Under the pieces are notes generated by a model. The model was not told where the DNA came from and ran no database searches. It was given only the letters and a program-made list of their open reading frames with translations. A stretch of 64,000 nucleotides of DNA from Microthyrium microscopicum (taxonomy: Eukaryota). The stretch covers positions 127,067 through 191,066 of the forward strand of contig MU004233.1 of assembly GCA_010405405.1 (NCBI GenBank), written 5' to 3'. Both the position numbers and the translations under genes were made by a program. Every line of letters starts with the position of its first letter. Position 1 is the first letter of the stretch. This document shows, piece after piece, positions 15,713-45,183 of the stretch.

Positions 15713-17006
15713 GGACACGGGTGCCTGCAGCAGTACAGGGAGATTGGCAGGCGATGGTAGAAGGGGGCAAGGTAAGGATTTGCGGGACCGAGCACGAGCT
15801 TGCTATAGGAGGTGAAATATATGTTCCGACAGAGAAAGTAGTGGAGTCATTTGATGTTAACTTAGGGATGCGGAGAGTTATGGTTGTTGTGTTGCTAACG
15901 GTTGAGAAGTTGATGTTGGATCCCCGTCATTCGCTGACAACTGACAACCTTAGGCCAGTGCAGTGCCACTTGAATCTAATCTCAATTCGGCAGTTGAATC
16001 CATATCGAACCTCAATTTAAGCGACTTCCATCTTGAACTTACTCCAAAGAACCGACCGCCATGAGATTGCGGCAATCCAACGTAAATATTATCTTAGATT
16101 CAGGTTCGCTTATATTGAAGCCATGAACTGAGTCCGTTTTGGGACAGTGTTTGTGGCTCTGTTACTGTTACAGAAGGCAGTGCTCTATTTTTGACATTTG
16201 TACCTGACCACCCGCTCTCCGCGTTACTGTACCTCTGTGTCTCTTAAGGTTGTCATCAGTGATTTCAAAAGTAGCTGAAATCTTGGTTTTCTGTCCCTTT
16301 GAAAACCATCTCATCTATTTCGGCATTACATCAGGATTTGCTCACAATACCTGATTCCGGACATAAAAGGTAGGGCAGCGGGCCTTTCACGCTCTCAAAT
16401 TAGGAGCATGGATAACGCGTCTAGAGTCACTATCTTCAAGAAAAACCGGTACCTATTCACGCGTCGCGCCATACACGAGTCCCTCATGGTTGTGTTTCAC
16501 GTGTTGTTGGGTTCACATTTCAACGACATCCCTATTTCTTCATTCCAAGGAGTTGAGATTGGATTCAGGTATTATTGGCAGAAACAAACAAATTGCTTGT
16601 TTATTTGATGCCCATTTCCTGGTATCCAGGCAACAGTTTTCTGCCCTGTAGCTCACAAATGGCGTGCAACTTTCGTTAGCCAAACCCCCAGAGAATCTGA
16701 CATTTATAGGCAGCAGTAACAAGTGCGTGAACATCTCGCTGGCTACTAAAGTAGAACTTCCTGGGTTCCAGAACCGTTCACGCACCATCTAGGGGAGTAT
16801 AGTGTACAGGTGAAGGTCGTTGCTAATGTTGATGATCCGCAATGATATTGGATCAAGTATCCATCAAAATGAGGTAAATGTTGTCGGTAATGCCTACGAA
16901 CAGTACGTGTTCACGCAAGCCTTTCGCGGTGTCTAGTGCCTTCAGCGGCCTAGTGGGCTAACAAAGTTCCGCTTCACTTTTTGAGAGCAAACAAAGTGTT
17001 TGGCCA

Positions 17007-17025
17007 CCTTAGCGGAACCCTAGGT
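17007..17025 (+). repeat. Left terminal inverted repeat
   Basis: CCTTAGCGGAACCCTAGGT; reverse complement at 35306-35324 with 1 mismatch. Confidence 0.9.
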
Positions 17026-17499
17026 ATCCGCACACCAACCTTACACCATGTTCACACCAAAAAATATTCCACACCATATAAATAAACACACTAAATAAAT
17101 ACAGTGTTTTAAAAACTTAATAGTATAGATTTAAACACGTATAGAAAATATAAAACAGTATATAAATTTTCTACACGGTATATTTTTAAAAACATAGTAT
17201 AAAAATAAGAGTCTAATTATATAGATTTAGATACTAATAATATAGAAATCTAAAGCAGTATAGGAATTCACATTTTATCTCTAGCTCTTCTAATCTACTC
17301 CTACTTAACCCTAAATACTAGCCTAATTACTACTAATTATTATAAACTAATTAAATAAATTAATTATTTATATTGCTTCTACTACTATACTAGATCTTAC
17401 AAAGTTTACAAACTATAATCTATTATATTCCAACTATCTAATTAAACTACTTACCTTACTACTCCCTCTACCTCTCTACTACTACAACTAAGCTAAGCT

Positions 17500-19700
17500 A
17501 AGCTAGCTAAATACAACGTTAGTCTTTAATCTATATACTAAGATTAACTAAAAATAATAGCGAAGGAGTAATAAGAGATAGTAAATTATATAACGTTTTA
17601 TAGAGAGAGAAAGTATATAACTATAATTACTAGAAGTTCTAATTAGTAGAGATCTTAATAAATTAAATACCTAAGGAATATAAAGATTAAGTTTAGTTTA
17701 ATACTAAGAACCATTAGAAGCTACCCTTAAGTTTAAGTACTTATAAATTAATATTAGCTAGTATTACTTTAACTACTATAGCTAAAAATGTAAGAAATAC
17801 ATCTAAAGCTAAGATATAGTTAGATTATATAAAGCTAAAAGACGTAATATCTATAGTATTAAGAAAAGGTACTTTTAACTTTATATCTAGACTTACTAAT
17901 CTTATAATATCTATAGTATTAAGAATTATAGGATGCTAAGTCTATTAATCTTATAATATCTATAGTGTTAATAATACTATAAAAGCTACTAATATTATTA
18001 TAATACTTATAGTATTAAGTAAAATAAGAGTATAACCTAGTATATAAAGGGTTAGTAATAATTTATTTTAAGCTAGCTATAACTAACTTCTCTATACTAC
18101 TATAAGTACTTATTAGATAATAAGGTACCTATATTAGTTAATTTTAGCTTAATATAAGTAGACTTTATATATATATAACTTACTAGGAAAGTTATAAGTA
18201 TTATAATCTTTTATATAATATAAGAAAAGATAGGTTAGTATACTATAATCTAAGCCTTAAAAATTATTAACTATTAATAATACTACTATAATTTGCTAAA
18301 ACTATAAGTCTTAGCATATTATAGTTATTATAAGAGATAAGTATAGAAATTTAGTTATATAGTAGATAATAATAAACTAAGGAAGCTATAGGTCTTAGTA
18401 TATTATAGTAGAATTATTAATAATTAAGAAGTTATAAAGAGGCTAGGTAGAAATATTATATAGTATAGTGCACTAATATTAAGACTCTTTAGAAGAAGAT
18501 ACTCTACCTAATATATATAGTAAAGATATAATATATAGATAAACGTTAGTATAGATATAGAATAACTTATATAAAATTTAATAGTAGTAGTAAAAGGATA
18601 GCTAAGAGGGTAGAGAGATAGATAAACCTTTAGATATTTAAGGTTATATAGTATTATACGTAGTTCCTATTATCTAGTATTAGCTAAGACTAAATTAAAG
18701 ATAGTAGAGTAAGGATAATAGAATTATACCAAAATATAAGCACTATAATAAGAATAGGCTAAGCAACGAGAATAAGCTAAGGTAGTAGTTAGTAAGTAGT
18801 AATATAAATAGATATAAGATATAGAGGAATTAAGATTAGTATATAGCTTCTTACGTAGATATAAATTAGTTATTAGTAGCTTTTAAAGGATATTTAGATA
18901 GCTTAAGTATACTAAAAGATAAATCTATAATTTATTAATACGTTTTAGTAGTAGTACTTACCTTAATTCTTAGTATAAACCTTAATAGTATAGATTATAT
19001 TAAATTATTTATATAAGAGTAGGTAACTAATATATATATAATAATCTAAAGTAGATAAATAAGTTAAGGTAAGAGAGTATTAAGTAAGTAGATAATAAAA
19101 ATACTATACTATAAACCTATTTATATTAGACTAGTATCTATAGTAAAGGCTTACTATAGTATATACTTAAAGTTATATAAATTTAAAAATAGAGGTATAA
19201 TATACAATAATAAAGCTAAAGCTAAAAGCGTTAGAATCTAAAGTATAAGGTATTAAGTAAGAATAATATACTATAAAATAATAGTTAGTAGTAATAATAT
19301 TAATAAGTAAGGGTTTATAGTTCTTAAATTATTTAGATAAGAAGTTAAAGTAGGCAATAATAAATATCTAGATTAAGTTAATATTAAAGATCTACGTTAG
19401 TTAGTAACTAGGTTAATTAGTATCTAGTAGTAAGCTAAAAAAGTATATAAAGTAGTAGTTCTTTTATCTAAATATATATAGTAGGCTTTAGACCTTACTA
19501 GGTAGAAGAAATAGGCAAAGTATATTAAAGTAAACGTTTTAGTAGTAAATACTAAGTAAGTATTAATAATAATAGGTAGTAAGATATAAATATAAGTCTA
19601 ATTTAAGACATTAATTTAGAGAGAAAGACTAAGTATACTTATAGTTCTTATTAGGTGTATCTAGGAACTAGAATTTAAGGATAAACAAACTAGTAGACTA
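17500..19700 (-). pseudogene. RIP-destroyed multi-exon gene relic inside the transposon, product unknown
   Basis: Minus-strand GTAAGT donor at ~18961, several CTAAC/CTAAT..YAG acceptors and a codon-like repeated peptide (Y[TA]KTYSF twice, ~18240-18405). Boundaries approximate. Confidence 0.35.
17844..18020. repeat. Four dispersed copies of TAATATCTATAGTATTAA-like unit at ~50-60 bp spacing
   Basis: Units near 17845, 17905, 17954 and 18001. Confidence 0.6.
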
Positions 19701-19829
19701 AAAATAGAGTAATAAAAAAAAGAGATAAATAGATAGAATAAGTAAGCTAGTAAGCTTAAAGAAGAGATATATAAAGGGCAAAGTAATAGTCTAATAGCGC
19801 TTCTATATGTAGGTTAAAGTATCTAAAGC

Positions 19830-22800
19830 TATAAATAGTACTATTTAATATCGTGTTAATATTCCTTACTCTTATAAAAACTTAATCTCTTAATTATTAT
19901 ATAAGAAGCAAGTACTAGTCTTTACTTAAGTCTTTTTAAGAAGACTTATATAATTACTAACTAACTTTTTAACTAGGATAATATATAACTTTTTTAGCTA
20001 AATTATAAGTAAACTAATTATAATAGTAGTATTACCTATCTTAAGTATAAAGAGATTAGTAATATAGTCTATACTAAAAAGCTTCTTATAAAGTATAACT
20101 ATAAAGAATACTTAATAAGTACTATAGTAAATACCTTAATAAGATATAATCTACTTAATATAGCTAATATAAATACTATTTTATATATACTTTATAAAAT
20201 CTTTCTAATTAAAAATAATATAATACTTAGAGATACTATAAATATTAGTTACTTAGTTATAAACTTATAATATAGATAGAATATAACTTATAAATTATTA
20301 TAGCTAAGCTAATGCTACTACTATAGGCTTTTAATAAAATCGTTAATCTAATACGTATAGTTAGTAGTATATATAGTAATAAGACTAGAGTAAGAGTAGC
20401 TAACTATCTTATTATCCTTAGTTACTAAACTAAGCTATTTTTTAGTATACTTAATAAGAATTTAATTTTAAATTATTATATTTAGATAGCTAGCATCTTA
20501 TATAATTAAAAAAAGCTTAGTATTAACATCTTTCTCTCTATACTCTAATTAAGGAAGAATTAACTTAAATAGAAGAGGATAATATTTATTAAAGTCTTAA
20601 ATAATCTTTATAATTTCTAAATTATTATTCTTATATCTATTAAGTATAATAGCGTAAATAATTTATAAGATTATATTAAGAAATAGTAAATCTTATTCTA
20701 GATTCTAAAAATTAGTAGTATAAATTAAATCCTTAAGAAATTTATATAAATCTTTACTAAATAGAGTAGAATTATTAGTAAGTAGGCTAAAGAAGCAAAT
20801 AGTATCCTTATAATATAAGCTAAAATATATATTAGAGTAGTACTAATTTATATAAAGTTATTAACCTTTAATTATCTCTAACTCTATAATATATCAAGTT
20901 AAACTAGTCTAAAGATTCTTACTAATATCTTATACTATAAGGTTTATTATAAAGTAAGTAGAAGTATTAAGTTATATTAAAAGCCTAATTAAAATAAGTA
21001 AAAATAGCTTACTTTATAGGTTATTCTCTATACTAATTGTACTAGCTTTAAGTAGAGTTTAAATTTAGTATATCCTTAAGATAGTTTAGCTTTACGTTAT
21101 AAAATATAAGCTATATATTTAACTAAGTAAAGAAGCTAATAATAGTAATAATTATATTAATAGTAGATAGTTTATAAATATAAGCTTTAAGTAGGCTATC
21201 TAGAGTAATAATAAACTTCTTTTAAATATACTTCTTAAAAAACTAAGTTTAGAGTATAACTAGAATAATAATTAACTAATAAGCATATTCTAAAAGTTAA
21301 TAGCTTCTAAGATAGTTAATTAGAGACTATAGCTAATACTATTTAAGAAGAAAAGAGAAGACTTATAATTTCTAAGTATACTTAGTTTTTATAAAAGAAG
21401 TAAAGATAAATTATAATAGAAGTTTATATATTATTTTTATAATACTACTATACTTAGAGTATACTAAGTCTAGTAAATAAGTAGAGATTAGATCTAAGGC
21501 TAAAGTAATATAAGTTATAAGATATCTAGTAAAGAAAAGTCTATTCTTATAAAAGAAGTTAACTTTAGCTAATTTTATTTATAAGCTATTTATTTTCTTA
21601 TAAGCCTTAAGAACCTTATAATAGTAGTTACCTATATAGACTATATTAAAGTTAAGTTCTTATTACTTCTTATTAGTAACCTTATAATATCAATAGCTAT
21701 AGATAGTAGTAGTTCTTATTATACTAGAATTCTTTTATTACTAAGGGAAGTCTATATAGAAGCTAATAATAAGAGTATATATAAATATATTAATACTATT
21801 AACCTTTATAACTACTCTCTAATTTATATTACGTATAGTATATAGAGTTTTATAAATATCTTTAAAGTTTAATCTATATAGACTAAATATAATAATTAAG
21901 ATATTAGCTTAATAAGATTATTCTTTAAAGTTAAAGCTACTAATAAAAGCGTATATACTTATAAGTAAATAATATATATTTTAATATAGACTAAAGCTAT
22001 TATTATAGAGCTAGATAGGAATAGATATAACTAGTATTAAAAATAAAATAAATTTAGCCTTAAGCTTAGTATAAAAGAAGTACTAGATTTTAAGCTCTAT
22101 ATAAATTAGATAAGATTTAAAGTAAGGCTAAAGCTTTTTATCTTTACCTATAATTTGCTAAATTATAAAGGTAGCTAATAATTAGAATATTAAATACTAA
22201 GAATATTTAGAACTAAAGTTATAGTCTATAGATACTTAATTATATCTAATTACCTAACTCTTAAGAATAAACTTATTATACTTATTATCTTTAATAAGAA
22301 ATAGCTTAGTAGTAGATGCATTAGCTAGGAAATCCTTAATACTAAAGTAATCTAGTATATTAGCCTTTTCTACTTATTAAATCTAAATAATAATATAGCC
22401 TTAAGGCCTAATATAGGTACGCTTTAAACGCTTATTAAGTCTAATTGCTACTATATAACTAATATAACCTTTAGTAGTAGAGAAACTATCTTTACTATAG
22501 TAAAGGCAAGATATATTATAATACTAGTAATAAATAAAGTCTAATAAAAAGACTAAATCTTCTTTATTACTCTAATAAAAGGTAAACTTACTAAAAGTAA
22601 TATAAATAAATAAAGACTAAGCTAAAGCTTTCTATAGCTTAACTAAATTATTAATAAAGTAACTTATACTTTTATAATATTTCTTATAAAGAGAAGGACA
22701 CTATAGAAAGCGCTTAAAATACTCCTATATATTATAGAAGTATAAGTACTTATCTTTAGCCTTTTCTTCCTCTTTCTTAAACTCTAATAATATTAGCTAA

Positions 22801-23059
22801 ACGTCTTATAATAAGGTAATTAGCTACTTTTAGATTTTAAGGTATAAAAGTTAGCTAGTTATATGCTCCTTTAGATAGCTAAGCAATTTTAGAAGATATT
22901 TAAGAAGTATATATAGTATAAAATATCTAATAAGTATATAAATAGTTAAATACTTCTTATAAAAGATTTTAGATAGAATATACTAAAGGCTAAGGCTAAT
23001 TTTAAACTCTAATAGCTAAAGCTTATTTTAGAGGTATAGTACGACCTTTAACTTATTAT
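19830..23059 (-). pseudogene. DDE transposase, catalytic and C-terminal part (RIP-mutated)
   Basis: One minus frame reads NNSFSLY*NIYYLL, FSLYRLNFKD, DFP***KNSS..SY*YY and ALDLISTYLLDLVYSKY. A shifted frame reads SNIYFSLYY..FSKDLYKF. Reversing C>T/G>A gives DGFGLYRNMYHSL, GPHGSNFED, DFPQQQKNSG..GCRYC, DPAHSEY and PNMHFGLHY..GEDLHK, i.e. the D..D..DxxH..E layout of CMC-type transposases. Confidence 0.85.
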
Positions 23060-23286
23060 TGTAATGATTCCTCTTTATAGGCTTTATAGTAGTATTATAA
23101 GAAAGATCTTGTTATAAGATTACGCGCTAGACCTAAGGGGGTTAGCGCGCTTAAGGATCTACTAAGCGAACTTACTTCCCTCGTAGATCTATAGCTCTTC
23201 TAAATCTTCTTCTCTTTCTCTCCTATTTGTAGATTCTAGAATATAATCTAATTATCTACTTGCTCTAAGTCTTATAGCTCGTTATA
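23060..23286 (+). repeat. 5' LTR
   Basis: Colinear with 30485-30711; differences are almost all C/T or G/A transitions. Confidence 0.95.
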
Positions 23287-23949
23287 TAATTTATAAACTA
23301 TTTAACTACCTATACGCTTATATTACGTACCTTAGAATTTATTTCTAAAAAAGCGTCTATATAGATTAATATCCTATACGTATAGTCTTAGACCCTATTA
23401 AAGATCCTTTATAGATTTACTAAATCTATTAGCCTTGCTAACTTTTTATCTAATTAGAGCATTAAGATTCTTTAATACTCTTTAACTTATTAATAGTCTA
23501 AACGTTAATTGCCTCTTATTCTTAGTTCTATAGAATACTAAAGTTTGTCTTCTATATTATTACTAAATATTTATAATTATACTTAATATACTTACTATTA
23601 AAATGCGCTAAATAAATAAGCGTTTCCTTCTAGTACTCTTCTTTATTATTTATAATTATAGCTAATAAGGCTCTTAACTAATAGACTTAAGTTAATAGCT
23701 ATATAGCTTGCTTACTATCTCTAATTACTTATACTTAGCTTAATAATTAGCGCCTATCTTTATCTCTTATATACTTACGTTATCTATCTCTATCGTATTA
23801 TCTCTTTGCTATATATACTAAGTATTAAAGTAGACCTAATATTTAAGATATAGTATAATTAGATACTACCTAGAAAGTAGTAAATTTAGTAGAGAGCATC
23901 TTAAGACTATTAAAATTATTAAAACTAGACTTAAGAGCATTATTAGAAG

Positions 23950-25890
23950 ATAAAGATAAGTTAGAAAATGATTATCTATTAGAATAAGGCTATAAAGATA
24001 AAGAGACTAAAGTATTAGAAGACGTTCCTTAAAATACTAGTTAAATAACTTTACTAAACTAAATAAATATAGGAGATAACTAGTTGCTAGCTTCTTTTTA
24101 ACCTAATAATAATACTAGACTTTCTTTTAGAATATATAAATAGTTAATAAAACTACGTTAGTAAGCTAAAAGCTTTAGAGTACTATTTATATTAATATTT
24201 TACTATCTTATAATAATAGACTTTAATTAACTAGTTACTTTAACTATTAATAAGAATTCTCTAATTTTCTAAGTTACTTAAGTACGAAAGATACTTAGTA
24301 AAGAAGGTAATAAGCTAAAAGATATAGGAGTATACCTCTATTATAAAGAAAAGTAATTAGATCTCTATTATTACTCTTATTACTTAATTAAATTAGGTAT
24401 AGACCTAGAATATTTATTAAAAGAAGAGCTTATACTAAATAACTTAATTATATAGCTTTACGCCTCTTTATTAGCTTCTTAAATTATAGCCTACCTCTTT
24501 AAAATTAAGTAGAATATAAATACTTATAATATAAACTTAATCTATACTCTCTAGGAAGAAGCTCTAAAAGCTTAGAGAGAGATATAGGACTTAGCTAAAA
24601 CTAATAATAAATGCGTAAAGTAGATTACTTACCTTAAAGCGTAAATCTAAGATAATATTATTACTTTTAAGGAAATAGCAACTATTTACTAAAAGGTATA
24701 AGAATTATAATATAATAATAATCTACTTAAGGAAGTACTTACTACTTATGTTAATAAGATTAATAAATACTATAAAGCTCTATAGAAAAAGGTAGATAAA
24801 GCTACTATTTTTTAAGCCTAGGTTAACGCCCTTTAAAAGAAACCCTTAGCTATTAAGGTAACTAATTCCTATTTTAATTATAATAAGTTAGTAGATAATA
24901 ATCTATTTTACTAAACTTCCTTAGCTTAAAATATAGACTAACCTAACTTAAATATATTTCTAAGGGTACTAGACTTATATTAAATTATTTTTTTCTTTAA
25001 CTTTAACTTAGTTAGTAGCGCTTCTCTTCTTAAAGTATAGAGTAATAAGCCTTTACTTTTTTTAAGGAAAGATAAGTAAAAGTATTACGCTTAGAAAGGT
25101 AAGGTACTAGATTACTTAGATAATAATACTTAAGTCTACCTTATTAAAGCCTTTAAGATCTAAGTTATTTAAAGAGTAATAAAGAATTAAGCGTTTAGTA
25201 CTATTAATAAGTAGAGTAACTATAAGTTAACTAACTTATATTTATTTATTATAAAAATATAGTCTAATTTAGATTATAAATATAGTATTAAGGATAGCTA
25301 TATTACTACTAAAACCTAGCTTAAAAGTTAAGAAGCTATAATAAAGCTTATTAAGAAACTTAAAGAGTTTTTAGCCTACTTCTTAGAAAATTTATATAAA
25401 GCTAAGCTAAGTAATTAAGATAAGATTATTAAAATATAACCTCTCTTACTTTTAAAGTTTATAAAGAGAGTACTCTTTATAGAATTAAAGACTTTTACTA
25501 ACTTCTTAGAAAGCTTATATACTATAGTTTATTATATTAAATATATTTTCTCTATAAATCTATATAGCTATAATAATAATAATTATCTAGTAGCTAAAGA
25601 TAGTAGATAGAAGCCTAAATATAACTATTCTTTAGAAATTTATAATACGTTAAAGGTAGATAACTACTATATAAAATATAGCAAAAAGGGTTATAGCTAC
25701 TAATAAAATAAAGCACTATATAAAGATAGAGATACTTTATTAAATATTAAGATATAACTAAAGGTTATAGCTATTATTATAAAGTTTATTATTATCTATA
25801 ATTAAATTACTACTTAATCTCCTTAGTTCCTAATTATAAAAGATAATTATAATAAGTATAATTATAGTAATAATATAGAAAACTAAAAGC
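23950..25890 (+). pseudogene. gag relic
   Basis: Decayed CCHC knuckle at ~25660-25710 (YIKYSKKGY = CxxCGKKGH). Ends at an AGAAAAC-TAA slippery-like site ~25877-25886. Start approximate. Confidence 0.55.
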
Positions 25891-25899
25891 TCCTTTATA

Positions 25900-28800
25900 G
25901 AGACGCGTAAAGAAGCTAAATAAGTAAGAAGTATATAATTAGTAATAAAAGAAGAATAAACTTAACTCTAAGCTAGTTCTCTCTAAAGAATAAATCTAAT
26001 ATAAGGTTAATAAAACTATCTAATACCTAGAAGGTAATCTCTAATAAGCATTATTCTTAGAGCCTATTATATTTAATAATACTAAGCTAGCTATTATTAA
26101 GATATCCCTTATCTTTATAATATATAATTTCTACTCTTAAGAAGTAGCTATTATACTTATAGTAAGTAATTAGTAGACTACTTATAGTATTATATTCTCT
26201 TTAAAGTAAGGCTACTACTTAAAAATTAATATTCTTATAGATACTAGGAGTAGAGTAATAGGAATCATCTACTCTAACTTTATTAAATAATATAAGATCC
26301 TTACTATTAATCTCTCTACTCCTTAAATTATATAATTAGCTAATAGTAAAGCTATTATAAAAGTTAATAAAGCTACTATAGTTAACGTTTATTTAGAAAG
26401 GTATATTAAATAAATCTACTACTTTATTATAAACGTTACTAGCTATAATCTTATTCTTAGTAACCTATAGATTAACCTCTATAAGGTTACTCTTAAAGAA
26501 AGAAAGAAGTAAATTCTTTTTAATTTAGACTACTACTTAATATACTACTTACTAGCTAGTTATTTAATCTTAATAGATTATAAAGGTTACTTAGTTAACT
26601 TAACTAATTTTTACTTTAAGAATATTACTATAGTTAGCGCTACTATCTTTATTAAGTTACTTAAATAAGACTAGTAATTTAGTAAAATTTAGCCTAATAA
26701 CTTTAAAGATAAGAAGAATAAGAAACCTCTAAACCTAGACCCTATATTAAAAGAAGATATTATTATTAACTTAGATAAAATCTTACTTAAGGACTTTAAA
26801 AAGTAGTAAGAGAAATATAATAAGCCTTCTCTTTTATAAGAAGTGATTCTTAAATACTTACTAAAAGAATATTATTATTATATAGACGTCTTTAATCTAA
26901 AGTTAGGTAATAAACTTATACTATATTATAGTAAATAGGATTACTTTATTAATATTATTTTAGATACTACTATTTTTAAACGCTACTATAATAGCCTAAG
27001 TTACTAAGAATTTCTTATAGTTAAATAATATATTAATTAAATACTTAGCTAAGACTAAGTTTAAGTTAGTAAATTATATTACGCTATACTAATATTATAT
27101 ATATATAAGCTAGGAGAAGGAATTTAAGTTTATATTAACTACTATAGACTTAATAAGATTATATAAAAGAATTATAACGTTTCTTTATAGCTACTAGAAA
27201 TACTTACCTATATCTATTACGTAAAATACTTCTCTAAATTTAATATTATTACTACCTTTATATATATCTATATTAAACCTAGTAATAAATATAAAACTAT
27301 ATTTCTAACTTATTATAAGTTATATAAATTTAAAGTTATACTCTTTAGCCTTACTAGAGCTCTAAGGACTTTTTAGGCTTATTTTAACTATATCCTAATT
27401 AATTACTTAAATAACTTTATTATAGGCTATATAGATAATCTATTAGTCTTTAATAATACTAAAGCTAGCTATACTACTTATATTTACTTAGTCTTAGAAG
27501 TAATAAATAAAGTAGGATTATACTTAAATATTTAGAAGTATAAATTTAATACTTAATAAGTTAAATACCTTAGCCTAATTATTACTATTAAAGGTATTAA
27601 GATAGACCTAGAGAAGATTTAAAGCATAGTTAATTAGTAATGTTTTTCTTTAGTAAAAGATATTTAAGCTTTTTTTAGCTTTGCTAATTTCTACTACTAA
27701 TTTATCTTTAAATATTTAAAGACTATAGTACTACTAATAGTACTTATAAAGAAGGACGCTATAGTAATTTTTCCTTAGGACCTTAATAGGCTAAAGGAAC
27801 GTATATTTAAGAAGTTAAAATAAGACTTTATATTTACTAAAATATTATATTACTTTAACTATATAAAAGAAATATAGCTAGAGATAGACGCCTTAGATTA
27901 AGTTTATACTATAGTTCTCTCTTAAAAAGGTAATAATAGAAAGCTTTACCTAATTATATACTTCTTAAAGAAAATAACCCTAGCTAAATATAATTATAAT
28001 ATTTATAATAAAGAGCTTCTAGCTATTATTTATATATTTAAAGAGTAGGAACTAGAGCTATTTAGCTCTATTAACTCTATTTAAGTATTCTCTAATTATT
28101 ATAACCTTTAGATATTTATAATAATAAAACGTTTCTCTTAATAATAAGCTAGATAGGCTAAGTTTCTCTCTTAGTTTTACTTTAAAATAAAGTACTACTT
28201 AAGTATAGCTAATAGAAAAGTAAATGCCTTTACCTATTAGTTATAAGATATTTTATAAAGTAATAATAATCCTTACGTCTCTTAATAGGTTTATTCTTTA
28301 CTATTTCTATACTAATTTAATATAAAGTATATAGTAAAGCTAGCTATATTGCTTATTAAACTTATCTATTTCTTAATACTATACTTAGCTATTATTATTT
28401 AGGATAAGTTAGATATTTCTAATCCTATAGGTAAGCTACTTAATCTTATAGAAGAGTCTCTTAGTAATAATAAAACGCCTAAGGGTAAGCTACTTAATCC
28501 TTTAAAAGATAATCTATTCTTAGATTTTAATAGTAACTAGTTTCTATAAGATATTATAAACGTAGTAAAGTATAACTAAATAATAATTACTATTTATTAT
28601 ACTAAAACTAACTACTAGCTCTTCTTACTTTTTAGTACTCTAGAATAAGAATAGATTAAGCTTAAGGATTACGTAGTAGCTACTAATAAGATAATTCTTT
28701 ACTATAACTAAATCTTTATTTCTTAAAGTAAGCTTTAATATTACGCTATATAGAGCGTATATAGCTATAAAGCTATAAGCTATAATAGAGTAGTAATAAC

Positions 28801-30150
28801 TTACTACTACTTATAAGAAGATTACTAGTAGCCTAAAATATTATAAGACGTTAAGAGCTTTATTAAAGGCTATAAATACGTATTTACTAAACTTATTTAT
28901 TAAAAGAAGTAAGGTTTCCTATATTAATTTCCTCTCTCTAAGCATATATAGTCTAATATTTCTATTAACTTTATTATCTTACTACCTTACTATTTATATT
29001 AAGGCATAATTTACTAATATATTATAGTAGTTATTAACTAATATATATAGACTTAACGTTTTATTCTACTACTAAACCTATTTATAGACTTAATAGTACT
29101 AGCCTTTATTAACTATATATAGAAGCTTATTAGCTAGCTATTAATAATTCTTTTAAATTATAGTAGTTAATTTACTTTTATATTTTAGAAGCGCTTATAT
29201 AAACGCGTAGGTATAATACTCTATCTTAGTATAGTATTTTACTCTAAAACTAATAGTATAATAGAAATCTTAGTTACTATACTTAAGTAATTCTTACGCA
29301 CGTTTATTAACTAGAATTAAGATAACTAAGTAGCTCTTTTGCCCTTTACTAAATTTGTAGTTAATTCTACTATAAACATTATTATAGAAGTTATACCTTT
29401 TAAAGCTTAAAATAGATTTAATTCTTAATTAAGCCTTAAGTCCTTATATTATTTTTTAAAACCTATAAATATCTTTATAGCTATTAATAAGGAAGCTATT
29501 AATATAGATATAATATAAAAGAATTACGTTAAGATATATAATTATTTAATAAAGTAATTAATTTAGATATAAGCTTAGTAGGTAGAATATACTAATCGCT
29601 ACTATTATATAGCTCTAGACTTATTACTAGGCAATTAGGTTTGCTTAGATATATAGAACTACTTTACTTTACGTTTCTTAAAGACTCTAGATAATAAGAA
29701 TATAGGCCTTTTCTATATAATTAAGAAGATTAATACTATTACCTATAAACTTAATCTTCTATCTTCTATAAAGATATATAATATTTTCTATACCTAGGTT
29801 TTTTACTATATTATAGACGACGCTAAGCTACTTAAGTATACTAATCTACTACTAGTAGTTATTAAAGAAACTATAGATAATAATAAATAGTTTATTAATA
29901 CTATTATTAATAGTTACTTTATTAGTTAATATAAGAAGCTATAATATAAGATTAAGTATACTAGTTATAATAAAGTAGAATAGTATAATTAGATAGCTAT
30001 TAAGAATATACTAAAGCTTATTACTAAGTTTTACGCTTAGTATCTTAGTAAGCTAAGCCTATATTCTACCTAGATACTACTAATACTAGAGCCTACTAGC
30101 AATAGTATTAATTATAACTCTAATAGCGTTCTTACTAATTAGGAGGCGTA
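25900..30150 (+). pseudogene. pol relic (protease, RT, RNase H, integrase, chromodomain)
   Basis: Protease ILIDTRS (=DTGS) ~26231. RT YINYYRLNK (=CVDYRGLNK) ~27131, VILFSLT (=MPFGLT) and YIDNLLV (=YxDD) ~27428. RNase H EIDALD (=ETDASD) ~27881 and NYNIYNKELLAII. Integrase ISINFI (=ISMDFI), LSIVFYSKTNS (=STAFHPETDG) and a GPF-like motif ~29705. Chromodomain-like YKIKYTSY (=YKVKWTGY) ~29945. Confidence 0.9.
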
Positions 30151-30362
30151 AATAATTATATTACTAATTCCTCTATATTAATAGAATTACTAACTACTAA
30201 ACTACTAGGACTTAAGAACTAGAGTATTCTAAAAATATTTTAGAGTTTATTAATGCTTCTTAATAGTTACCTTAGTAAGCTAGAAGTTAAAATACTCTAA
30301 ACGACTAATAATTAGTATTGTACTATAAAAAGATTAAAATATCATTTATTACTAAAAGTTTA

Positions 30363-30428
30363 TTAGACTAGACTAGACTAAACTAGACTAGACTAAACTA
30401 AACTAGATTAAAATAGAATAGATTAGAA
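30363..30428 (+). repeat. (TAGAC/TAAAC)n pentamer microsatellite in the Gypsy 3' UTR
   Basis: TAGACTAGACTAGACTAAACTAGACTAGACTAAACTAAACTAGATT.., directly upstream of the PPT region. Confidence 0.8.
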
Positions 30429-30484
30429 AAGTAGATATAATTAATAGTCTATAGCCTAGAGAGCTATACTAAAGAAAAGGGTTA

Positions 30485-30711
30485 TATAATAATTCTTCTT
30501 TATAGGCTTTATAGCAGTGTTATAAGAGAGATCTTATTATAAGATTACGTACTAGACCTAAGAGGATTAGCGCGCCTAAGGATCTACAAAACAGACTTAC
30601 TTCTCTCATAGATCTATAGCTCTTCTAGATCTTCTTCTCTCTTTCTCTTATTTATAGATTCTAGAATACAATCTAATTATCTACTCGCTCTAAGTTTCGT
30701 AGCTCATTACA
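30485..30711 (+). repeat. 3' LTR
   Basis: 227 bp, preceded by polypurine tract AAAGAAAAGGG, ends CATTACA. Confidence 0.95.
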
Positions 30712-30716
30712 ATTAT

Positions 30717-31520
30717 TATAAAAGTCTAATAAACGTAGAAAAGGTACTATAGAAAAAGGTCCTAGTAGAAGTATTATAAAAGATAAAGCCTAAGAAGTAT
30801 TAAGCTAAGTAGCTAAAGGAACTCTAATAATAGTAAGAGGAGCTAGAAGGATTATAATAAGACTAGTAAGAATCTAACTAATTATAGTATACTATTTTAT
30901 AGAAAGCTTATTCTAAAGCTTAAATAACTTAATAAATAAAGTAGATTTATTAATCTTATTACTATTATTATCTAGATTATTATTAAGAATAATAGGAACC
31001 TTATTATTATTCTTAATAAGGGCATTATTACTATATTCTTAGTAGTCTATAATAGCTAATAGTTTACTAAGCTGCTTAAGACTAAGCTTAAAAGTATTAA
31101 AAATAATACCCTCTAGATTAGTAAAAGATTCTATTTCTTAATACTCTATAAGGGTATTATAAAGTTTACTAAGATTAAGGTCTTATTTAATAGTTATTAG
31201 TATATATATAATAGTTAATTAATATTAAAAGTACTTACTATAATAGTATAAGTATTAAAATTACTTACTTAATTATTATTATTATTATTAACGTCTATCC
31301 TATTACTATTCCTACTAATATTACTACTATTATTAGATTTATTATTATTATTAGAGTTATTAGAGTTTTTATTATTACTACTATCTTTATTATTACTATT
31401 TTTATAATAATGCTTTAAAAGGCGATACTCTAACTCTAATAATCTACCTATAGTAGTCTACTATACTACTTCTTTTTACTAACGCTTAGCTACCTTAGTT
31501 AGCTTACTAAAGCTATGAAT
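30717..31520 (-). pseudogene. 5' part of the transposase gene (acidic, low-complexity N-terminus), split off by the Gypsy insertion
   Basis: Reading frame continues across the ATTAT TSD into 23059 (..RLLDFYN|NKLKVVLY..). AAT/GAT-rich (poly-Asp-like) tract at ~31270-31400. Start approximate. Confidence 0.55.
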
Positions 31521-31999
31521 TATTTTTAGTTAAGCTATAACTACTTAGAAGTACAATATAGATAGTAGAACTAAATATAAAGTTAAGCGTAGTAAAATTA
31601 TAATAAATTAAAAGAATTAAATAATAGAGAATAGGAAGAGAAAGAGAAAGATAAAGAGAAAGAGGAAGAGGAAAATAAAGAAATAGACGATAGAACGTTA
31701 TTTAAAAAAATAAGGTTAAATATTTCTAGGTAGACTACCTAGTAAATAAAGGCAGAAGCAAATAACTAGACATTAAGGTATTAATAACCTCTTATAGCTA
31801 CCTACATATAGTTTTCTAGGTAGTTTAATCTAAATAGAACCTTAAAACTACTTAGTAATTATTTAGGTTATTTAGTATTGTAAATTAGTAAAATCCTATA
31901 TTATTTACTATAGTAATAGTAACTTTAAGATTAGAATTTTAGGAGTTTAGAATAATAGATATAGGAACTAGACTAGAAGGTATAATATAGACTATAACG

Positions 32000-34800
32000 T
32001 ATTATATAGGGTAAAGACTTAGAGAAATTCCTATCTAATATCTTCTTATATACTTATAAATATTAGATATAAATATAGTTAATTAATTTACTTTATTAAT
32101 ATACTATAAACAAATAATAGATATTATTATAAAGCGCTCTATTTACTACTTTATCTTCTTTACTAGCATTCTCTCTATCCTTATTAAGTAGCCTACTAAG
32201 TAAAGTAGTTAACTTAGCTTATCTAAACTATATTAAACTTAGACTTAATTAGTTTTTTAATCTACTACCTAATAATAAATATAATAATAGAGCTAGCTAT
32301 TAGCTAGATGCCTATAAAAAGCAAGTTAGTAGTAATTAACCGCCTAGATAATATATAAGTAGAGTAATAAGTAAATAAACTATTACTATAAGAATATTAA
32401 ATAATAATTAAAATAGTTAAAGAATTAGACTTATATATTAGTTAGGCTATACGTAAATTAATAAAAGGTCTTAGACTTATTATTAAGCTATACCTAAGCT
32501 TATAAGTAATAATAAGTATTTAATTTATTTAAGTAACTTAGAAATATATTCTATAGTCCTCTATAAAAGTATAATATCTTTTTAGATATAGATCTTACTA
32601 TAAGTACCTAAACGCTACTATTAGCCTATAGTATTACCTATAATTTAAGAAAGTAGAGGATAAGTAGGCTAATAATATTAACTAAGTAATAAAGAATCTA
32701 GAGAATCTATAATACTATTAGATTTAATTACTAATAGTAAGGCTTTATCTACCTTAAATAGAGATAAATATTCTAAGTTTAATAGAAGCCTATAAGCTAA
32801 AGCTTATAAGTATATATTTAAAAAGATTTATTAAAGGTTTATACCTATAAATATATATCTACTCTTTAATCTCTAACTACTTAATCTTATTAATATACCT
32901 AACTATAGTATATAGCTAAATATAAATACTTATAAGTAGAAGAAGCTAAAGTCTAGACGTAATATTATAGAGTAAGAATATATTAGTAATAACTAAGTAT
33001 AAAATTATATTATAAATAGTAATAAATAATATATAAGGTTAAGAATATAAAAGCTATTAATAATAAAAATATTATATAATAGTTATAATAATAAGATATT
33101 AAGATATAGCTAATATAAGAATAAAAATACTACTCTATACTAACTTAAGGAAGTATTACTACTAGTACTAGTAGCCTAACTAGTAGAACTACTTTTAATC
33201 TAACTAGTAGGTTTACTATTACTATCTAAATAATTATTAATTATAGTTTATTCTAAGGTAAATTTTACTACCTTTACCTTTTTTAAAGGATTCTTTTTAA
33301 TAGAGCTATAGTTCTAAAACGTATGTACAAAATACTTTAATACTATATTATAAATTAGTACTATACTTAAATAACTTTAAAATTAAGTAACTATCTAATA
33401 TATTATTACTAATCTAAAGTATAACGTAATACTATAAAATATAGTAATATATTAGATATAATATAAAAAAAATAAGCTTACTAATAAACTTAAAGTTATT
33501 AGTAAGAATAATACTATTATAGAAAACTAGTAAAAATTTATAAGCTATATAATTATTATTAGTAAGCAAGTTAGTAATAATATACTTATTCTTTTTTTAG
33601 ATATATATATCTACTTATGTACTAAGATTTACGTATATTTCTATAATTATAATTAGTTAAATTTAAATTATAAGTTTAAAATAAAAGTAAATTAAAATAA
33701 AATAAAATATAATACTAGTTATAAAGAATTTACCTTTTTTAAAGGCTAGCTTAGTCTAAGTCTTTTTAGTATCTAAACCTTTTCTTATATACTTTTAAGT
33801 AGTAAGAAAGTTTATAAGTAAATAAATTAGTTAAAGAGTTTTTCTCTAACTATCTAAACTTACCTTATTAAGAAGCAAATATCTAGAGTTAGCTATTAAA
33901 GACTAAATATAAGCCTATTTATCTAGTTAATTTTTATTTAAATATACGTATTTTTAATCTAATCTAGTTAATAAAAATAAATTAAATTAAATTAATTAAA
34001 TTACTATAAATTAAAGTAATCTAAATTAAATTACTCTAAATTAAAGTAATCTAAATTAAATTACTCTAAATTAAAGTAATTTAAATTAAAGTAATTTAAT
34101 TAATTTGGAAAAAGTATAAATAAGAGTATATTTAAGTAATATATATTAATATATAATTAAATAATAGAGAAGTAAAACTAATAAGTTATAAAATAAAAGT
34201 ATAGTAATAAATAAAGTAGAAAGTATAATAATAAATAAAGTAGAAAGAAGAAAATATATTAAGTTAGAATATAAGCTATAACTTACTTTAAAGAATATAA
34301 GTAACTCTTACTTTAACTACTTTATAGCGTCTATAAAAATAATATAACTAATAATAAACTAATTATCTTCTTCTAATATTTCTAGCGTAAGATATACTAC
34401 TTAAATAACTATAAGAAACTAAAACTAAGAATAGAAATAAAATATTTCTTATATATACTTCTTATATAATTACGCTAAAGCTATATCTTTAGCTTTAGCT
34501 ACTACTATAATTATAAGATTTATAATAATATCTAATAGCTACTTAGTAGTTAGAGTAAACTTCTTTTTATACTTCTTATAAAAAGTTACTTTACTATTAT
34601 ATATATTTTATAAATAGTTAAGAGGCTATATTATATTATATTAGATATAAGTATATATAATATATATATACTATTATATAATTAGAGGTTAAGATTAGCT
34701 ATTTTAGATACTACCTATATTTAACTAATTTATTATTAAATTTTAGCTATTTTAGGCACTACCTAGAGTTATAAAAGTTAATAATTAATTTATAAATATT
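32000..34800 (-). pseudogene. RIP-destroyed multi-exon gene relic inside the transposon (P/S/Q-rich C-terminal half), product unknown
   Basis: Minus-strand codon-like exon ~34290-34580 ending in GTAAGT, a further donor at ~33733, and a long frame 32130-33300 rich in TTA/CTA/TAA/TAG codons (RIP products of Pro/Ser/Gln codons). Boundaries approximate. Confidence 0.4.
33989..34106. repeat. Palindromic 30-bp-period tandem array bounded by a 17-bp inverted repeat
   Basis: CTAAATTAAATTACTCTAAATTAAAGTAAT occurs twice perfectly (34021-34080) plus degenerate copies. AAATTAATTAAATTACT at 33989-34005 pairs with AGTAATTTAATTAATTT at 34090-34106. Confidence 0.75.
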
Positions 34801-35305
34801 ACTATAAGAGAAGAAAGAAGCTAAAGAAGAGAATAAAGAAATAGATATAAAATATAAAAATAAGTAAAATTTTTATAATAAAATGTTACGTATTAAATTT
34901 TACTATTAGCCTAGAAGAAGAAGAAAAGAATTAAATTAAAATTAGCTTATAAAGTCTATTATAAAGTTTTATTTTATATTATATTATCTCTATACTATAT
35001 TAAGATCTCTATATTAAATCTATATAACTATTAGCTAGTTCTTATACTAAGATTACTAGCGTATACTAAGGTACTAATTTTATACTATTCTTATACTATT
35101 AACTTATAAATATACTATTCTTATACTATTAACTTTTCTATATATATATTAATTTTTATATATATTTAAAATTATACTATATATATTTCTATACTATTTA
35201 AACATAGTATTAAAAAATATATATATTAAAAATTACACGTATATATTCTTACATCATCTTTACACTATTTAAGCGCCTTACACGGAGTCCACACCGTGTC
35301 TAAAA

Positions 35306-35324
35306 ACCCAGGGTTCCGCTAAGG
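35306..35324 (-). repeat. Right terminal inverted repeat
   Basis: ACCCAGGGTTCCGCTAAGG, followed by CA. Confidence 0.9.
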
Positions 35325-35573
35325 CAGCTGAAGAGCAGGTTCTTCCGCTCAGCCACTCTCACGATATGCTGCGCCCCGCAAGACGAGATATCAATTCGCA
35401 AAGGCTTTTTTTCTTTGCTTGTCTACTCATCATCAGTAAAAACCAAGTCGTCCGACAGGACCTTCAATCTACCATTGATATCCAAGGAGCTAGGATCGTT
35501 CAGCATCATCACTTTTCGAACGACTCGCAAATTAGTAATTAGAGAGAATCGACAACTGCTATCTCAACCATCG

Positions 35574-37783
35574 ATGTCCTCTTCAGCCCCCATCCAGGCT
35601 CAGGAGGTGACGCCTGTTGAACATCTGGATGCCGCTTCGGATCAAAACGAATTTGTTCTTGCCCGCCCTGCTGCAACGGGTAGAGATGAAAGCAACGGCG
35701 AAAATCGCGGCTTCAATGGCTGGCCACGCACCCAAAACCAAAAACGGAACGGTGTTGATGCCTCAATTTGCGACATTTGGAAGAAGTCCAACTTTCAAGA
35801 GGCCATGAGTATATTGCCTGCACCGACTATACTTCTAGAACACACTAGTCTGGCGAAACTCGGCAATTGCTGCGACTTTTGTGCATATCTTAACGGCATA
35901 GTCTCTACGCCAAAGACTGACCAGCCAGATCCAGAACTGATGAAGCCTGAGTACTATATGCTCATACAGTCCACTATCGATTGCACCATTCTCGGCCGCA
36001 TCGTGTGTATGATGGATACCGCGAGCAGTTCGGTTACATTGATTCTACAAGGCACTGATGTGACAAGTGGCAAACGCAAAGCTCATGCTCCAACATCATT
36101 CAATCATGCGGATCTGCATTTAGCGAAATACTGGATGGTAACTTGCTCGAAATCCCAGAGCCAGTGGAACCCGCCTTTTCGGACACTACCTGAGAACCTG
36201 CGGTTTGTAGATTGTGTGACAAGCTCAATCGTTTTAGCACAACTGGCTTTGTCAAAGAGATATCTCTGCCTATCATATGTATGGGGTCGCTCTCACGCAA
36301 CTGACGAAGTAGACACGAACGGCCTTCTACCAGCAACACTACCAAACGTCATTAGAGATGCTATGGACGTTACTCAGGCCCTGGGATACCGATATCTCTG
36401 GGTGGATAGATACTGTATAAAACAGGACGATGAGGACAAGCACTCACAAATTAGGCTCATGGGCGCCATATATGAATGTGCAGAGCTCACGATAGTCGCT
36501 GCACATGGATCCAGTGCAGCTGATGGTAAGTCCTGCATTCTTAGTCAATGGTCTTACACACTTGCACCATAAATCTCGAAAATACTGTTCGATGGAATTT
36601 GGACAGGCTACCCTTGAGAGATTGAATAGACAGTCGTTGCTATAAGGAGAATTCTCTCATGAATGCAGGCTAATAAAAAGCAGGTCTCACCGGCGTTTTC
36701 GGGCAAAGGACAGAAATAGACGAGTTTCTACTCTCGAGCTTGCAGGTGAGAGTCATACTACGGCCCAGCAACCCGGCCTCTATCATCAATAATAGTGTAT
36801 GGTCCAGACGTGGCTGGACCTTTCAAGAAGCCCTTCTCTCTCGCAGAAGGCTTGTCTTTACCAAACATTCCATGTATTGGCAGTGTTGTTGTTTTATGGC
36901 AGTCGAGCCTGAACAGTCCAACGCGGATTCGAACATGGCCCTGACCTTTCCAATGGATCAAGTTGGCAGTGCACCTCTTGAAATCCTGAAACGTATAGAA
37001 GAATACTCCACACGACAACTCTCTCTGCAGGCCGATGCACTCAATGCAATGAGAGGAATATTCAGCGCCTTTACGAAGATGAATCCAGCTGTGTTGTCTC
37101 TTTACGGCATCCCATTTTGGCCCACGCCTCGCTATTCTACGAAAAACCGTTTCATGGCAGGTCTACATTGGAAGATGTTCTCACCTGGAAAACATCGACC
37201 TGAATTCCCATCTTGGTCCTGGCTCAGTCAGCAGGGAGCTGTCCATTTCGACAGAGATGTCCATTTTCCGCTGTTTTTGTCTATCGAGATCAAATTTACA
37301 CAGCCCAACGGACGTAAACTTGCATTGTCCGATATCTACGATAAGTTGGCAAAATCTCAAATATATGAGCGAGATGTTAGAAGCACATTGACTGTAAAAT
37401 GCTGGACTTTACCAGTAAAATCCATTCATTCGCCAAACTGGGATTCCTCCACGGAGATCTTAATCGTCTACCAAATAGCCGGCGAGGAAGTGCGGACTTC
37501 CGCTTGGCTGGACGCTGGACGCGCACGGTACGAAGAATATACGTCTGCTGCTCAAGCAGGAGAAATACAGGCACTATTGTGTGGTATCACGCCATTTGCA
37601 CATACGATTTTGGCAAAGAAGGCCGGGAACTCGTGGGGAAGAATTGGCATTGTTTCTCTGATGTCTTGGTCAAGCATTTCCAAAGTGCCATATGACGAGC
37701 GCATAAAGTCTGCCGTGGAGCCGCATCTACGCCGTCTGATAACGGACAAGGCATGCGTACGACAAACCCTTACTTTAATCTAG
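35574..37783 (+). CDS. HET-domain (heterokaryon incompatibility, TOL-like) protein, 2 exons
   Basis: YLCLSYVWG, LPNVIRDAM, RYLWVDRYCIKQDD, MGAIYECAELTIVAA, WSRRGWTFQEALLSRRRLVF, FPSWSW. Intron 36526-36683. Confidence 0.92.
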
Positions 37784-37789
37784 ACTTCC

Positions 37790-38002
37790 CAACGGCATGG
37801 CAAAATAAATGGCGTACTCCCATCAACTCTGATGGCACCCAGATGCTACGCTTGGTGATCAAGTACTTTGTTTGCTATAATCGGCGTTTAGGCTGGGGAT
37901 CTTTATTAGATACGATAGGAATTAAAGCACCTTTTGGTTAGCAGCGCTGGTGGTAGCCATCAGAGTAGATGGGAGTACGCCATTTATTTTGCCATGCCGT
38001 TG
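37790..38002 (+). mobile_element. MITE copy 2
   Basis: 47-bp near-perfect TIR CAACGGCATGGCAAAATAAATGGCGTACTCCCATC[A/T]ACTCTGATGGC; TSD ACTTCC on both sides; 213 bp. Confidence 0.95.
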
Positions 38003-44775: not shown

Positions 44776-45183
44776 GGCGCAAATTATATCATACAAAAGC
44801 CAGCAGGTATAGAAAGAGAGAATCAGCTCAACATTTGGTCAAATGTGAGAACGTGGGAGTTCTTAGGGGGTTGCCCAAGGCTGTTCAAGATGCAACGTAG
44901 CTCGTTCTGTCGCAGGGAGATGGACCTGGTGCCGGCTGCGTCAACACCGGGATATCAGAAAATCAAGCTCTAGACTGGGTGATACTCGCCAGGCTTGGCT
45001 TCAAATGAGTGCAAGAATTTGACAAACAGGTTGAAGAGGTCGTTCTCGAGTTCGTTGGTTGAAGGCATTTGATCTTTGGGTAGCGGCATTAGCAGCGTCT
45101 GATTGGCTATAATTCTCACCAATAAAAACGTGGCTGCTGCGTGTCCAAATAAGGCTAGGATTCAGCCTTATCTTCACGTCGTC

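Follow-up and report, generated by a model that had tools for sequence, protein, structure and literature searches.

An AT-rich block of the Microthyrium microscopicum genome as a probable dead copy of a large CACTA-like TIR transposon with a nested Gypsy element

The window, 64,000 nucleotides of contig MU004233.1 of Microthyrium microscopicum (GCA_010405405.1, positions 127,067 to 191,066), contains an AT-rich block that is very probably one dead, RIP-damaged copy of a large fungal cut-and-paste TIR transposon of a CACTA-like lineage, with a Gypsy retrotransposon nested in its transposase gene. The block (17007-35324) measures 18,318 bp and is composed of a 10,661-bp TIR transposon, the 7,652-bp Gypsy element and one 5-bp duplication. 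The original prediction had described a single transposon of ~10.7 kb; this size holds once the nested LTR element and its duplication are subtracted, but the coordinates span the full block, and the LTR retrotransposon was absent from that account. The features of the locus are as follows.

17005..17006: left TSD copy (CA), from the sequence
17007..17021, plus strand: left TIR, 15 bp, perfect, from the sequence
17022..17206: left subterminal region bearing short ACAC(C/G) repeats (pooling both ends, none of 300 shuffles attains the top 5-mer count)
17300..19950: unreadable internal DNA downstream of the transposase (no Pfam family in six of six frames)
19965..20216, minus strand: last transposase exon, predicted second BAH-fold domain (HMM domain match, weak alone; motifs 10/10, 9/10 and 5/5 RIP-compatible; the assignment also leans on the fold of an intact relative)
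20217..20287, minus strand: probable intron with approximate limits, placed at a frame change where the open frames of relatives also break
20288..21060, minus strand: transposase part with H(3)H (20833) and the catalytic E (20755) (HMM iE 2.9e-12; motifs 8/8 and 5/5 RIP-compatible)
21060..21135, minus strand: probable frameshifting lesion, approximate place, interpreted as a deletion and not as an intron since it is shorter than in relatives
21135..23054, minus strand: transposase core (HMM iE 2.8e-57; codon compatibility), with the first D at 22001, the second D at 21752, C(2)C at 21695/21686 and D-x-x-H at 21470
22103..22676, minus strand: predicted first BAH-fold domain, immediately preceding the RNase H core (motifs 17/20, 11/12 and 9/9 RIP-compatible; lower limit estimated from residue spacing, fold taken from residues 288-465 of the intact relative P0004)
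23055..23059, second copy 30712-30716: 5-bp target duplication of the nested Gypsy element (AT-rich, so weak alone)
23060..30711, plus strand: RIP-damaged Ty3/Gypsy-type LTR retrotransposon (LTRs 23060-23286 and 30485-30711; pol frame from ~25900)
30717..31180, minus strand: 5' transposase part beyond the Gypsy element, in the same codon phase as the core, start codon not placed
31400..35100: unreadable internal DNA upstream of the transposase, the place of the second gene in relatives (no Pfam family in six of six frames of 31400-33900)
35310..35324, minus strand: right TIR, 15 bp, from the sequence
35325..35326: right TSD copy (CA), from the sequence

Both predicted boundaries are confirmed: the perfect TIR lies exactly at the two GC/AT steps, where GC content drops from 0.47 to ~0.21, and CA stands outside each TIR as a 2-bp TSD, longer duplications giving mismatches. 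The RIP indices change in the same way, with TpA/ApT at 1.60-1.73 inside the block versus 0.64-0.70 outside and (CpA+TpG)/(ApC+GpT) at 0.08-0.13 inside versus 1.32-1.39 outside; within the left subterminal region the damage increases inwards. The subterminal repeats that had also been predicted are present. At the insertion point the element breaks no reading frame (17 open codons precede the junction), and since both flanks are single-copy in the assembly there is no paralogous empty site. The empty site that had been predicted was not encountered. The left flank occurs in six public runs; four of them are possibly the source sample, and of the other two one has 22% and the other 5% of words in common.

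The element contains one transposase gene of ~1,200 codons on the minus strand; it has the DDE, C(2)C and H(3)H motifs and is split by the Gypsy insertion in its 5' part, by a frameshift and by RIP. The frame is readable through this damage, as had been proposed: the X-read minus-strand frame matches 250 proteins at E<=0.001 (best E 4.7e-29), and the homologs with names are hypothetical proteins of Pezizomycotina (filamentous ascomycetes). A median of 47.5% of aligned codons (171 proteins) are RIP-compatible, against a mean of 19% and a maximum of 24% in 200 shuffles, and all seven key residues are RIP-compatible. The peptide motifs of the original prediction are not literally present, but on the minus strand RIP-compatible sites for all of them follow in order, at 22001, 21884, 21752, 21698 and 21470 in one frame and at 20758 in another; the motif at 22001 is compatible at 13 of 13 codons, six of them exact, and the five-residue GCRYC motif also fits nine other places. 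Pfam gave no match to the X-read transposase frames, nor to the rest of the internal DNA in 12 frames, and a minus-strand coding signal at ~18650-19950, from a codon model trained on this same window, is weak and only suggestive.

The LTRs of the nested retrotransposon are 227 bp each and differ at 30 positions, 29 of which are transitions. Its pol region matches RT_RNaseH_2 (E 8.5e-14), RT_RNaseH, SH3_Tf2-1 and RVT_1, and we take it to be a Gypsy element from its domain order and the presence of SH3_Tf2-1.

The transposase belongs to the CMCT clade: its homologs retain the D..D, C(2)C, H(3)H and E residues, and the model of one of them is RAG1-like. In 34 intact relatives D502, D585, C604, C607, D679 and H682 are invariant and H906, H910 and E930 near-invariant (H906/H910 >=90%). 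The DDE triad (D502, D585, E930) falls in the RAG1 fold of an intact relative, C(2)C and an H(3-4)H lie after the second D and before the E, and the corresponding window codons are RIP-compatible; the duplication is within the 2-5 bp of the clade. Termini in CMCT elements are CA..TG 'in most cases', and a CA start is seen in seven relatives in the same genome, while the window copy, C12 and the metagenome relatives L042 and L027 start with CC. Our transposase tree took in this family only. Sequence search of solved structures returned nothing, viral_contigs contained no relative and word-indexed protein searches gave three and four matches.

The genome contains 17 further RIP-damaged relatives, or 18 loci in total, mostly 10.9-12.5 kb long. 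Both ends could be located for eight, and all eight have a 2-bp duplication of varying sequence. Six of these have paired CMYTA ends flanked by AA, TG, TG, CT, CT and CC (chance 6.9e-8), and two, delimited by sibling boundaries, are flanked by TA; thus seven of the nine delimited copies, the window copy included, have non-TA duplications. For one element a 3-bp duplication fits as well as a 2-bp one. At eight of the 17 other loci one end or neither could be placed, and the ends of a ninth are only probable. The CCTTAG ends had been called unusual; the sequence is correct, but since the ends of relatives read CACTA, CATTA or CCTTA they are a variant of the CACTA-type end within this series rather than an isolated oddity. 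The intact relatives L042 and L027 have CCTTA ends with TA on both sides; among the five metagenome relatives bracketed by inverted repeats, L049 and L081 are without a 2-bp duplication and L082 requires a terminal mismatch. Subterminal repeats reach 0 of 300 shuffles in six of ten elements, and three of the ten show no enrichment. We also considered TA as part of the TIR throughout the lineage and rejected it, seven duplications being non-palindromic; for the TA-flanked copies only, it is possible.

Other copies with exactly these termini, which the original prediction expected, were not found, there being no second copy of the 15-bp TIR in the assembly. With at most one mismatch the TIR has four matches: the two ends of the element, a site in GC-rich DNA and a site in a subtelomeric repeat array. 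No sibling of the window element came up in exact TIR and DNA searches of the genome, nor in purine/pyrimidine seeding against the 17 own and 13 metagenome loci, which did recover a sibling of the nested Gypsy element. Genome-wide, the 9-mer end motif shows no enrichment (372 matches versus 624 for a control). The lack of a sibling showing that the internal DNA moved together with the ends, and the ~6 kb of 10.7 kb without a readable gene, would be expected if the block were a pile of unrelated RIP-damaged repeats, its inverted ends and CA pair being coincidental or from a small separate element. This reading is highly improbable, however, because the TIRs coincide with both composition steps; at six other loci the same transposase lies between the same kind of end motif and 2-bp duplication, in elements of the same size class; and the members of each of two sibling pairs, C1/C7 and C6/C9, resemble each other along their entire 12 kb.

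A multi-gene layout had also been proposed. It is seen in relatives, but no second gene is readable in the window copy. A conserved second gene lies divergent from the transposase in nine metagenome loci and in one copy of this genome (C1:8 kb), and on the transposase strand in L027 and most own-genome copies. Neither Pfam nor the Atlas gave a credible match to this gene. Its profile found no clear match in the window copy (searched to 34500), and a RIP-simulated profile was uninformative, as it lost most known positives too. The two-gene layout parallels TnpA/TnpD of CACTA/EnSpm elements.

The structural model (pLDDT 79) is of an intact relative rather than of the window copy, and its fold agrees with the RNase H-like DDE fold expected for the transposase. 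The best structural match to residues 183-1004, among 48,161 chains, is RAG1 (Foldseek E 3.6e-6; Z 13.8, rmsd 5.3, 452 aligned); RAG1 chains score Z 12.7-13.8 and HzTransib Z 8.9-9.2. Identity is 10-12%, and the RAG1 match leaves two BAH-fold domains of the relative unaccounted for. RAG1/Transib makes 5-bp TSDs, versus 2 bp in this lineage. The first BAH-fold domain matches at Z 10.6 (rmsd 3.4, 123 aligned). For the second, C-terminal domain modelled alone, BAH-containing chains are within the top 14 rows (best Z 7.7, rmsd 3.4, 105 aligned), a weaker match with Z < 8 and a model pLDDT of 68. Thus, by fold match only, the transposase is predicted to carry two BAH-fold domains flanking its catalytic core; Pfam BAH is matched by none of the 34 relatives. 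The presence of BAH-labelled look-alike clusters in the Atlas suggests that CMCT transposases may commonly carry the domain, instead of its being peculiar to this lineage; this would lessen the novelty and broaden the question. A search of titles and abstract openings of the papers listed found no report of a BAH domain in a transposase, a weak blank given the poor coverage of subscription papers and Repbase.

Taken together, the homologs, conserved motifs, predicted fold and duplications support reading the element as a large CMC-like TIR transposon of fungi whose TSD is 2 bp. In such an element, the transposase would bind the CMYTA ends and subterminal repeats and excise the element by RAG1/Transib-like chemistry; the ends would then be joined to target DNA two bases apart with a loose sequence preference, producing the 2-bp duplication. 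The window copy may have inserted between two host genes, with the Gypsy element inserting into it later and RIP hitting both; its close siblings may since have been lost, or be absent from the assembly. Our best guess, and a tentative one, is that the BAH-fold domains might attach to nucleosomes or partner proteins and thereby influence the site or the timing of insertion. Were they to bind chromatin, a RAG1-like transposase with histone readers would make the target choice of the clade directly testable. A bolder reading, which we consider unlikely, is of an unnamed Pezizomycotina lineage at superfamily level within CMCT, with CMYTA ends, a non-specific 2-bp TSD, a conserved partner gene of no known family and two BAH domains that read chromatin to steer insertion; if true, a chromatin-reading targeting device would be built into a RAG1-like DNA transposase.

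The window copy itself is dead and ordinary, and the lineage matters more. It is little described, as had been supposed: databases list its transposases as hypothetical proteins of filamentous ascomycetes, most of them under Pfam cut-offs, so that annotation overlooks them. This one genome has 18 loci that carry them. The end rule (CMYTA plus a 2-bp duplication) allows RIP-damaged blocks to be delimited.

The original prediction had likened the element, by size and multi-gene layout, to Sly1-1 of Neurospora crassa. As described in the available text of PMC4592977, Sly1-1 is an 11,534-bp, low-copy element with TIRs and RIP-damaged copies; it is assigned to CMC by its DDE, C(2)C and H(3)H, its second gene is divergent, and Coccidioides immitis has a homolog. 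That the window element simply belongs to this named Sly family is fairly probable, in which case the lineage has been described and what is newly specified is limited to its TSD, ends and domains; such membership would refine our explanation of a CACTA-like transposon, not contradict it. Most own-genome elements are near Sly1-1 in size (~11-12 kb), the second gene is likewise divergent in the nine metagenome loci, and Coccidioides posadasii proteins are within the transposase family. However, the same source text sets the Sly1-1 TSD at 3 nt or longer, the third base being a mismatch, against 2 bp here, and the second gene is mostly on the same strand in this genome. NCU09969, CHGG_09451 and CIMG_13536 are not among the matches listed (120 of 227 rows; 30 clusters). 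The accessible parts of PMC5751038 and PMC11969663 give no Sly or BAH details, and a literature search with poor coverage of subscription papers and Repbase found no later classification of Sly and no report of a fungal CACTA element with a 2-bp TSD.

The element had also been called Plavaka-type, and PlavakaB, as given in the available text of PMC12730594, shares with it the CMCT motifs and has CATCA..TGATG ends, close to CATTA, with 2- or 3-bp TSDs. Plavaka (PF18759) is the sole Pfam family matched by more than one of the 34 relatives (10/34, best E 3.2e-6), and Plavaka-bearing clusters stand at Atlas ranks 2 and 12. Yet these matches cover only positions ~187-323 of 325, the last third of the profile, from the second D to D-x-x-H; in a set of 30 relatives nine match and one reaches the cut-off; none of 14 tabulated elements has TGT..ACA or CATCA..TGATG termini, the lineage being CMYTA-ended; and the families in that text are from Agaricomycotina, not Pezizomycotina. 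It is therefore improbable that the element is Plavaka in the strict sense.

With CACTA/EnSpm the lineage shares subterminal repeats, found in the window element too, the two-gene layout of relatives and a literal CACTA start in two own-genome relatives (C1:4.30 Mb and C7); the window copy lacks CACT(A/G) termini. Transposase_21 is matched by none of the 34 relatives in Pfam, which distance could explain, and a Transposase_21 cluster stands at Atlas rank 26. Fungal EnSpm families, by the available text of PMC12730594, have 3-bp TSDs, whereas a 3-bp match occurs in one of the 14 tabulated elements here. ESTA (PMC12730594) and CNEST (bioRxiv 10.1101/2025.05.19.654958) are likewise fungal CMCT/CMC transposases with 2-bp TSDs. 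According to the accessible parts of these sources, however, they are TA-specific elements of Basidiomycota with a CAC start (16 of 16 ESTA sequences examined; CNEST CACGG), in contrast to the CA duplication of the window copy and the six other non-TA duplications of this lineage.

The window is C4:127,067-191,066 of a 37.1 Mb fungal assembly, and a composition scan along it shows GC falling from 0.47 outside to about 0.21 within positions 17007-35324, where the dinucleotide indices computed in the window are of the RIP type. Both composition steps carry one perfect 15-bp inverted repeat with CA outside it, as the original prediction had placed them, and the duplication is no longer than 2 bp. 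By simple arithmetic, two perfectly matching 15-bp ends would each fall 50 bp or less from a step with a chance near 1e-5. The block is a real, well-delimited dead transposon. The length of about 10.7 kb proposed for it holds for the host element (10,661 bp), but the block as a whole measures 18,318 bp because an LTR retrotransposon is nested inside.

The transposase frame is, as first suggested, readable through the RIP damage: the motifs reconstructed earlier have RIP-compatible places on the minus strand, in order. Independently of those motifs, a search with the raw frame 20904-22601 (X at stops) returned 250 proteins at E<=0.001 (best 4.7e-29), the named ones being hypothetical proteins from lichen fungi, Aspergillus, Penicillium, Xylariales, Trichoderma, Colletotrichum, Alternaria, Coccidioides and others. 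A profile was then built from 34 intact-looking relatives, picked out of 150 by length and motifs.

Transposase profile matches and the nested element
23084-21135, minus strand: first profile match, iE 2.8e-57
20833-20288, minus strand: second profile match, iE 2.9e-12
20213-19965, minus strand: third profile match, weak
23060-30711: LTR retrotransposon, with LTRs, target duplication and RT/RNase H domains

One frame change in the transposase looks like a small deletion and the other like an intron common to relatives. Over 171 proteins, a median of 47.5% of aligned codons could have encoded the relative's residue before RIP, versus 19% in shuffles. The residues kept in the family are D502, D585, C604, C607, H906, H910 and E930 (family numbering), the set that serves as the signature of the CMCT clade in PMC12730594. 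These residues, the fold of a relative and the 2-bp duplication place the host element among CMC-like transposons, in agreement with the original prediction.

The nested element is of the Gypsy type and is flanked by a 5-bp duplication. Its 227-bp LTRs show 30 differences, of which 29 are transitions, and its RT and RNase H domains are readable with X at stops. The transposase profile match reaches the LTR, and on the far side of the retrotransposon the DNA continues in codon phase, which places the Gypsy insertion within the 5' part of the transposase gene. A sibling on contig C11 shares 87.7% identity with it across 6,723 columns; this sibling lies (L153, about 1,408,800 onward) within an AT block holding another member of the transposon lineage, and nested insertions seem to interrupt several further members as well.

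An AlphaFold2 model (pLDDT 79) of P0004, an intact transposase relative, has RAG1 as its best Foldseek match, and RAG1 is also on top among 48,161 chains compared with VIA-align (Z 12.7, rmsd 4.8, 466 aligned). Model residues 288-465 match BAH domains of ORC1, ASI1, AIPP3, PBRM1 and others (best Z 10.6, rmsd 3.4, 123 aligned). The C-terminal domain was modelled by itself on 17 sequences (pLDDT 68); BAH-containing chains stand in the first 14 rows of its matches, with a best Z of 7.7 that is under the tool's safe level. Motifs of both BAH-fold domains have RIP-compatible places in the window copy, and Pfam BAH matched none of the 34 relatives. The nearest Atlas clusters, mostly from Mucoromycota, are automatically named 'BAH domain-containing protein' and adjoin Plavaka, DUF1258 and Transposase_21 clusters, so BAH-fold domains may be a general feature of CMCT transposases. 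A literature search found no paper on a BAH domain in such transposases, which counts as weak evidence. The BAH likeness is a match of predicted folds, and a common fold shows no function.

The assembly holds no close copy of the host element. Searching it with P0004 gave 25 matches at 18 loci, the window locus included, and 18-40 kb were fetched around each of the 17 others for end finding. Paired C(A/C)(C/T)TA ends at composition steps occur at six of these, one pair being matched by end motif with just 14 of 20 bases agreeing. The duplications are AA, TG, TG, CT, CT and CC (the last fits 3 bp equally), and six 2-bp duplications out of six would arise by chance with a probability of 6.9e-8, at a 2-bp match chance of 0.064. 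Two further loci have a TA duplication, delimited by the stop of sibling similarity, a ninth is a probable case, and the remaining eight yielded one end or none. Seven of the eight delimited elements are 10.9-12.5 kb long and one is 18.1 kb. Among metagenome loci, 24 of 73 were inspected for bracketing repeats and five were positive: in L042 and L027 the ends read CCTTA and TA flanks each of them, L082 has a TA duplication with a terminal mismatch, and L049 and L081 have other ends and no 2-bp duplication. On this survey of own-genome and metagenome sequences, a 2-bp duplication with loose sequence preference characterises the family.

The CCTTAG ends, described as unusual in the original prediction, are present, but they are one point in a CACTA/CATTA/CCTTA series rather than an isolated oddity. 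That they are a product of RIP was rejected because the same series occurs also in undamaged DNA.

Within the lineage, C6:261068-273438 and C9:1019054-1031526 are siblings with 82.6% identity across 12.5 kb, TA on both sides and TIRs that barely match, at 7 of 20 bases; of all members, the C6 copy has suffered least from RIP and is best suited for reading the extra genes. The relatives at L082:2564-9996, L049:85-5005 and L081:4340-13425 have ends of another type, CTACC or CTATA, and unclear duplications; they may represent a second sub-lineage in which the terminal base is unpaired. The start of C4 (L004:1-420) carries telomere repeats and then an array, damaged by RIP, whose repeat unit of 16-17 bp resembles the TIR at 14 of 15 bases, probably by chance.

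Upstream of the transposase, relatives have a conserved second gene of no known family, divergent in nine metagenome loci and on the same strand in L027. Its profile has matches at 11 of the 17 own-genome loci (iE 3e-15 to 0.09; one divergent, ten same strand). In the window copy, low-power searches up to 34500 detected no second gene, so about 6 kb of the host element is unread. A low-complexity triplet run occupies 31270-31400; on the minus strand it looks like an acidic tract hit by RIP, of the kind with which the second gene ends in relatives, and on this sequence likeness it could mark a same-strand second gene. The right internal region also holds a short, partly palindromic tandem array of 15-bp period at 33964-34107 (families D1, I8, I24).

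The insertion site is intergenic. It lies upstream of one gene, at a distance of about 1.3 kb, and precedes a HET-domain gene by about 250 bp, probably in the promoter or 5' region of the latter. Among public sequencing runs, X5 shares 22% of the words of the flank.

Features flanking the host element
35415-37783: HET-domain gene, beginning just right of the host element (PF06985, E 9.8e-28)
5438-5619, 37790-38002, 45180-45398, 48389-48596 and 57015-57225: MITE-like copies, plus a partial match near 4800

The MITE-like copies form a dispersed family of about 210 bp in the GC-normal flanks, with 50-60-bp terminal inverted repeats. As for the block, the host element would have inserted into intergenic space, followed by the Gypsy insertion, and RIP would have acted on both. 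Since RIP acts only where one nucleus contains another copy, siblings would once have existed.

The analysis establishes the structure of the element, its signature residues, a relative's fold and the family-wide 2-bp duplication. Beyond these, kinship with RAG1 and Transib suggests that the transposase would bind the ends and subterminal repeats, excise the element and carry out strand transfer with a 2-base stagger. BAH-mediated nucleosome contact might bias insertion, though this is a guess; the BAH-fold domains predicted by modelling are a testable lead. The window copy itself is ordinary, and its lineage is under-annotated.

Set against named systems as their sources describe them, the lineage falls outside strict Plavaka on the Pfam cut-off and the ends, the window copy differs from fungal EnSpm in TSD and ends, and ESTA/CNEST elements are TA-specific with CAC ends, neither of which the window copy has. 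The suggested likeness to the Neurospora element Sly1-1 holds for size and, in relatives, for the partner gene, but the second gene went undetected in the window copy. Compared by description only, the likeness extends to signature motifs and Coccidioides homologs; the difference is that the TSD of Sly1-1 is reported in PMC4592977 as 3 nt or more, versus 2 bp here. On that descriptive comparison, we lean towards placing the lineage in the Sly family.
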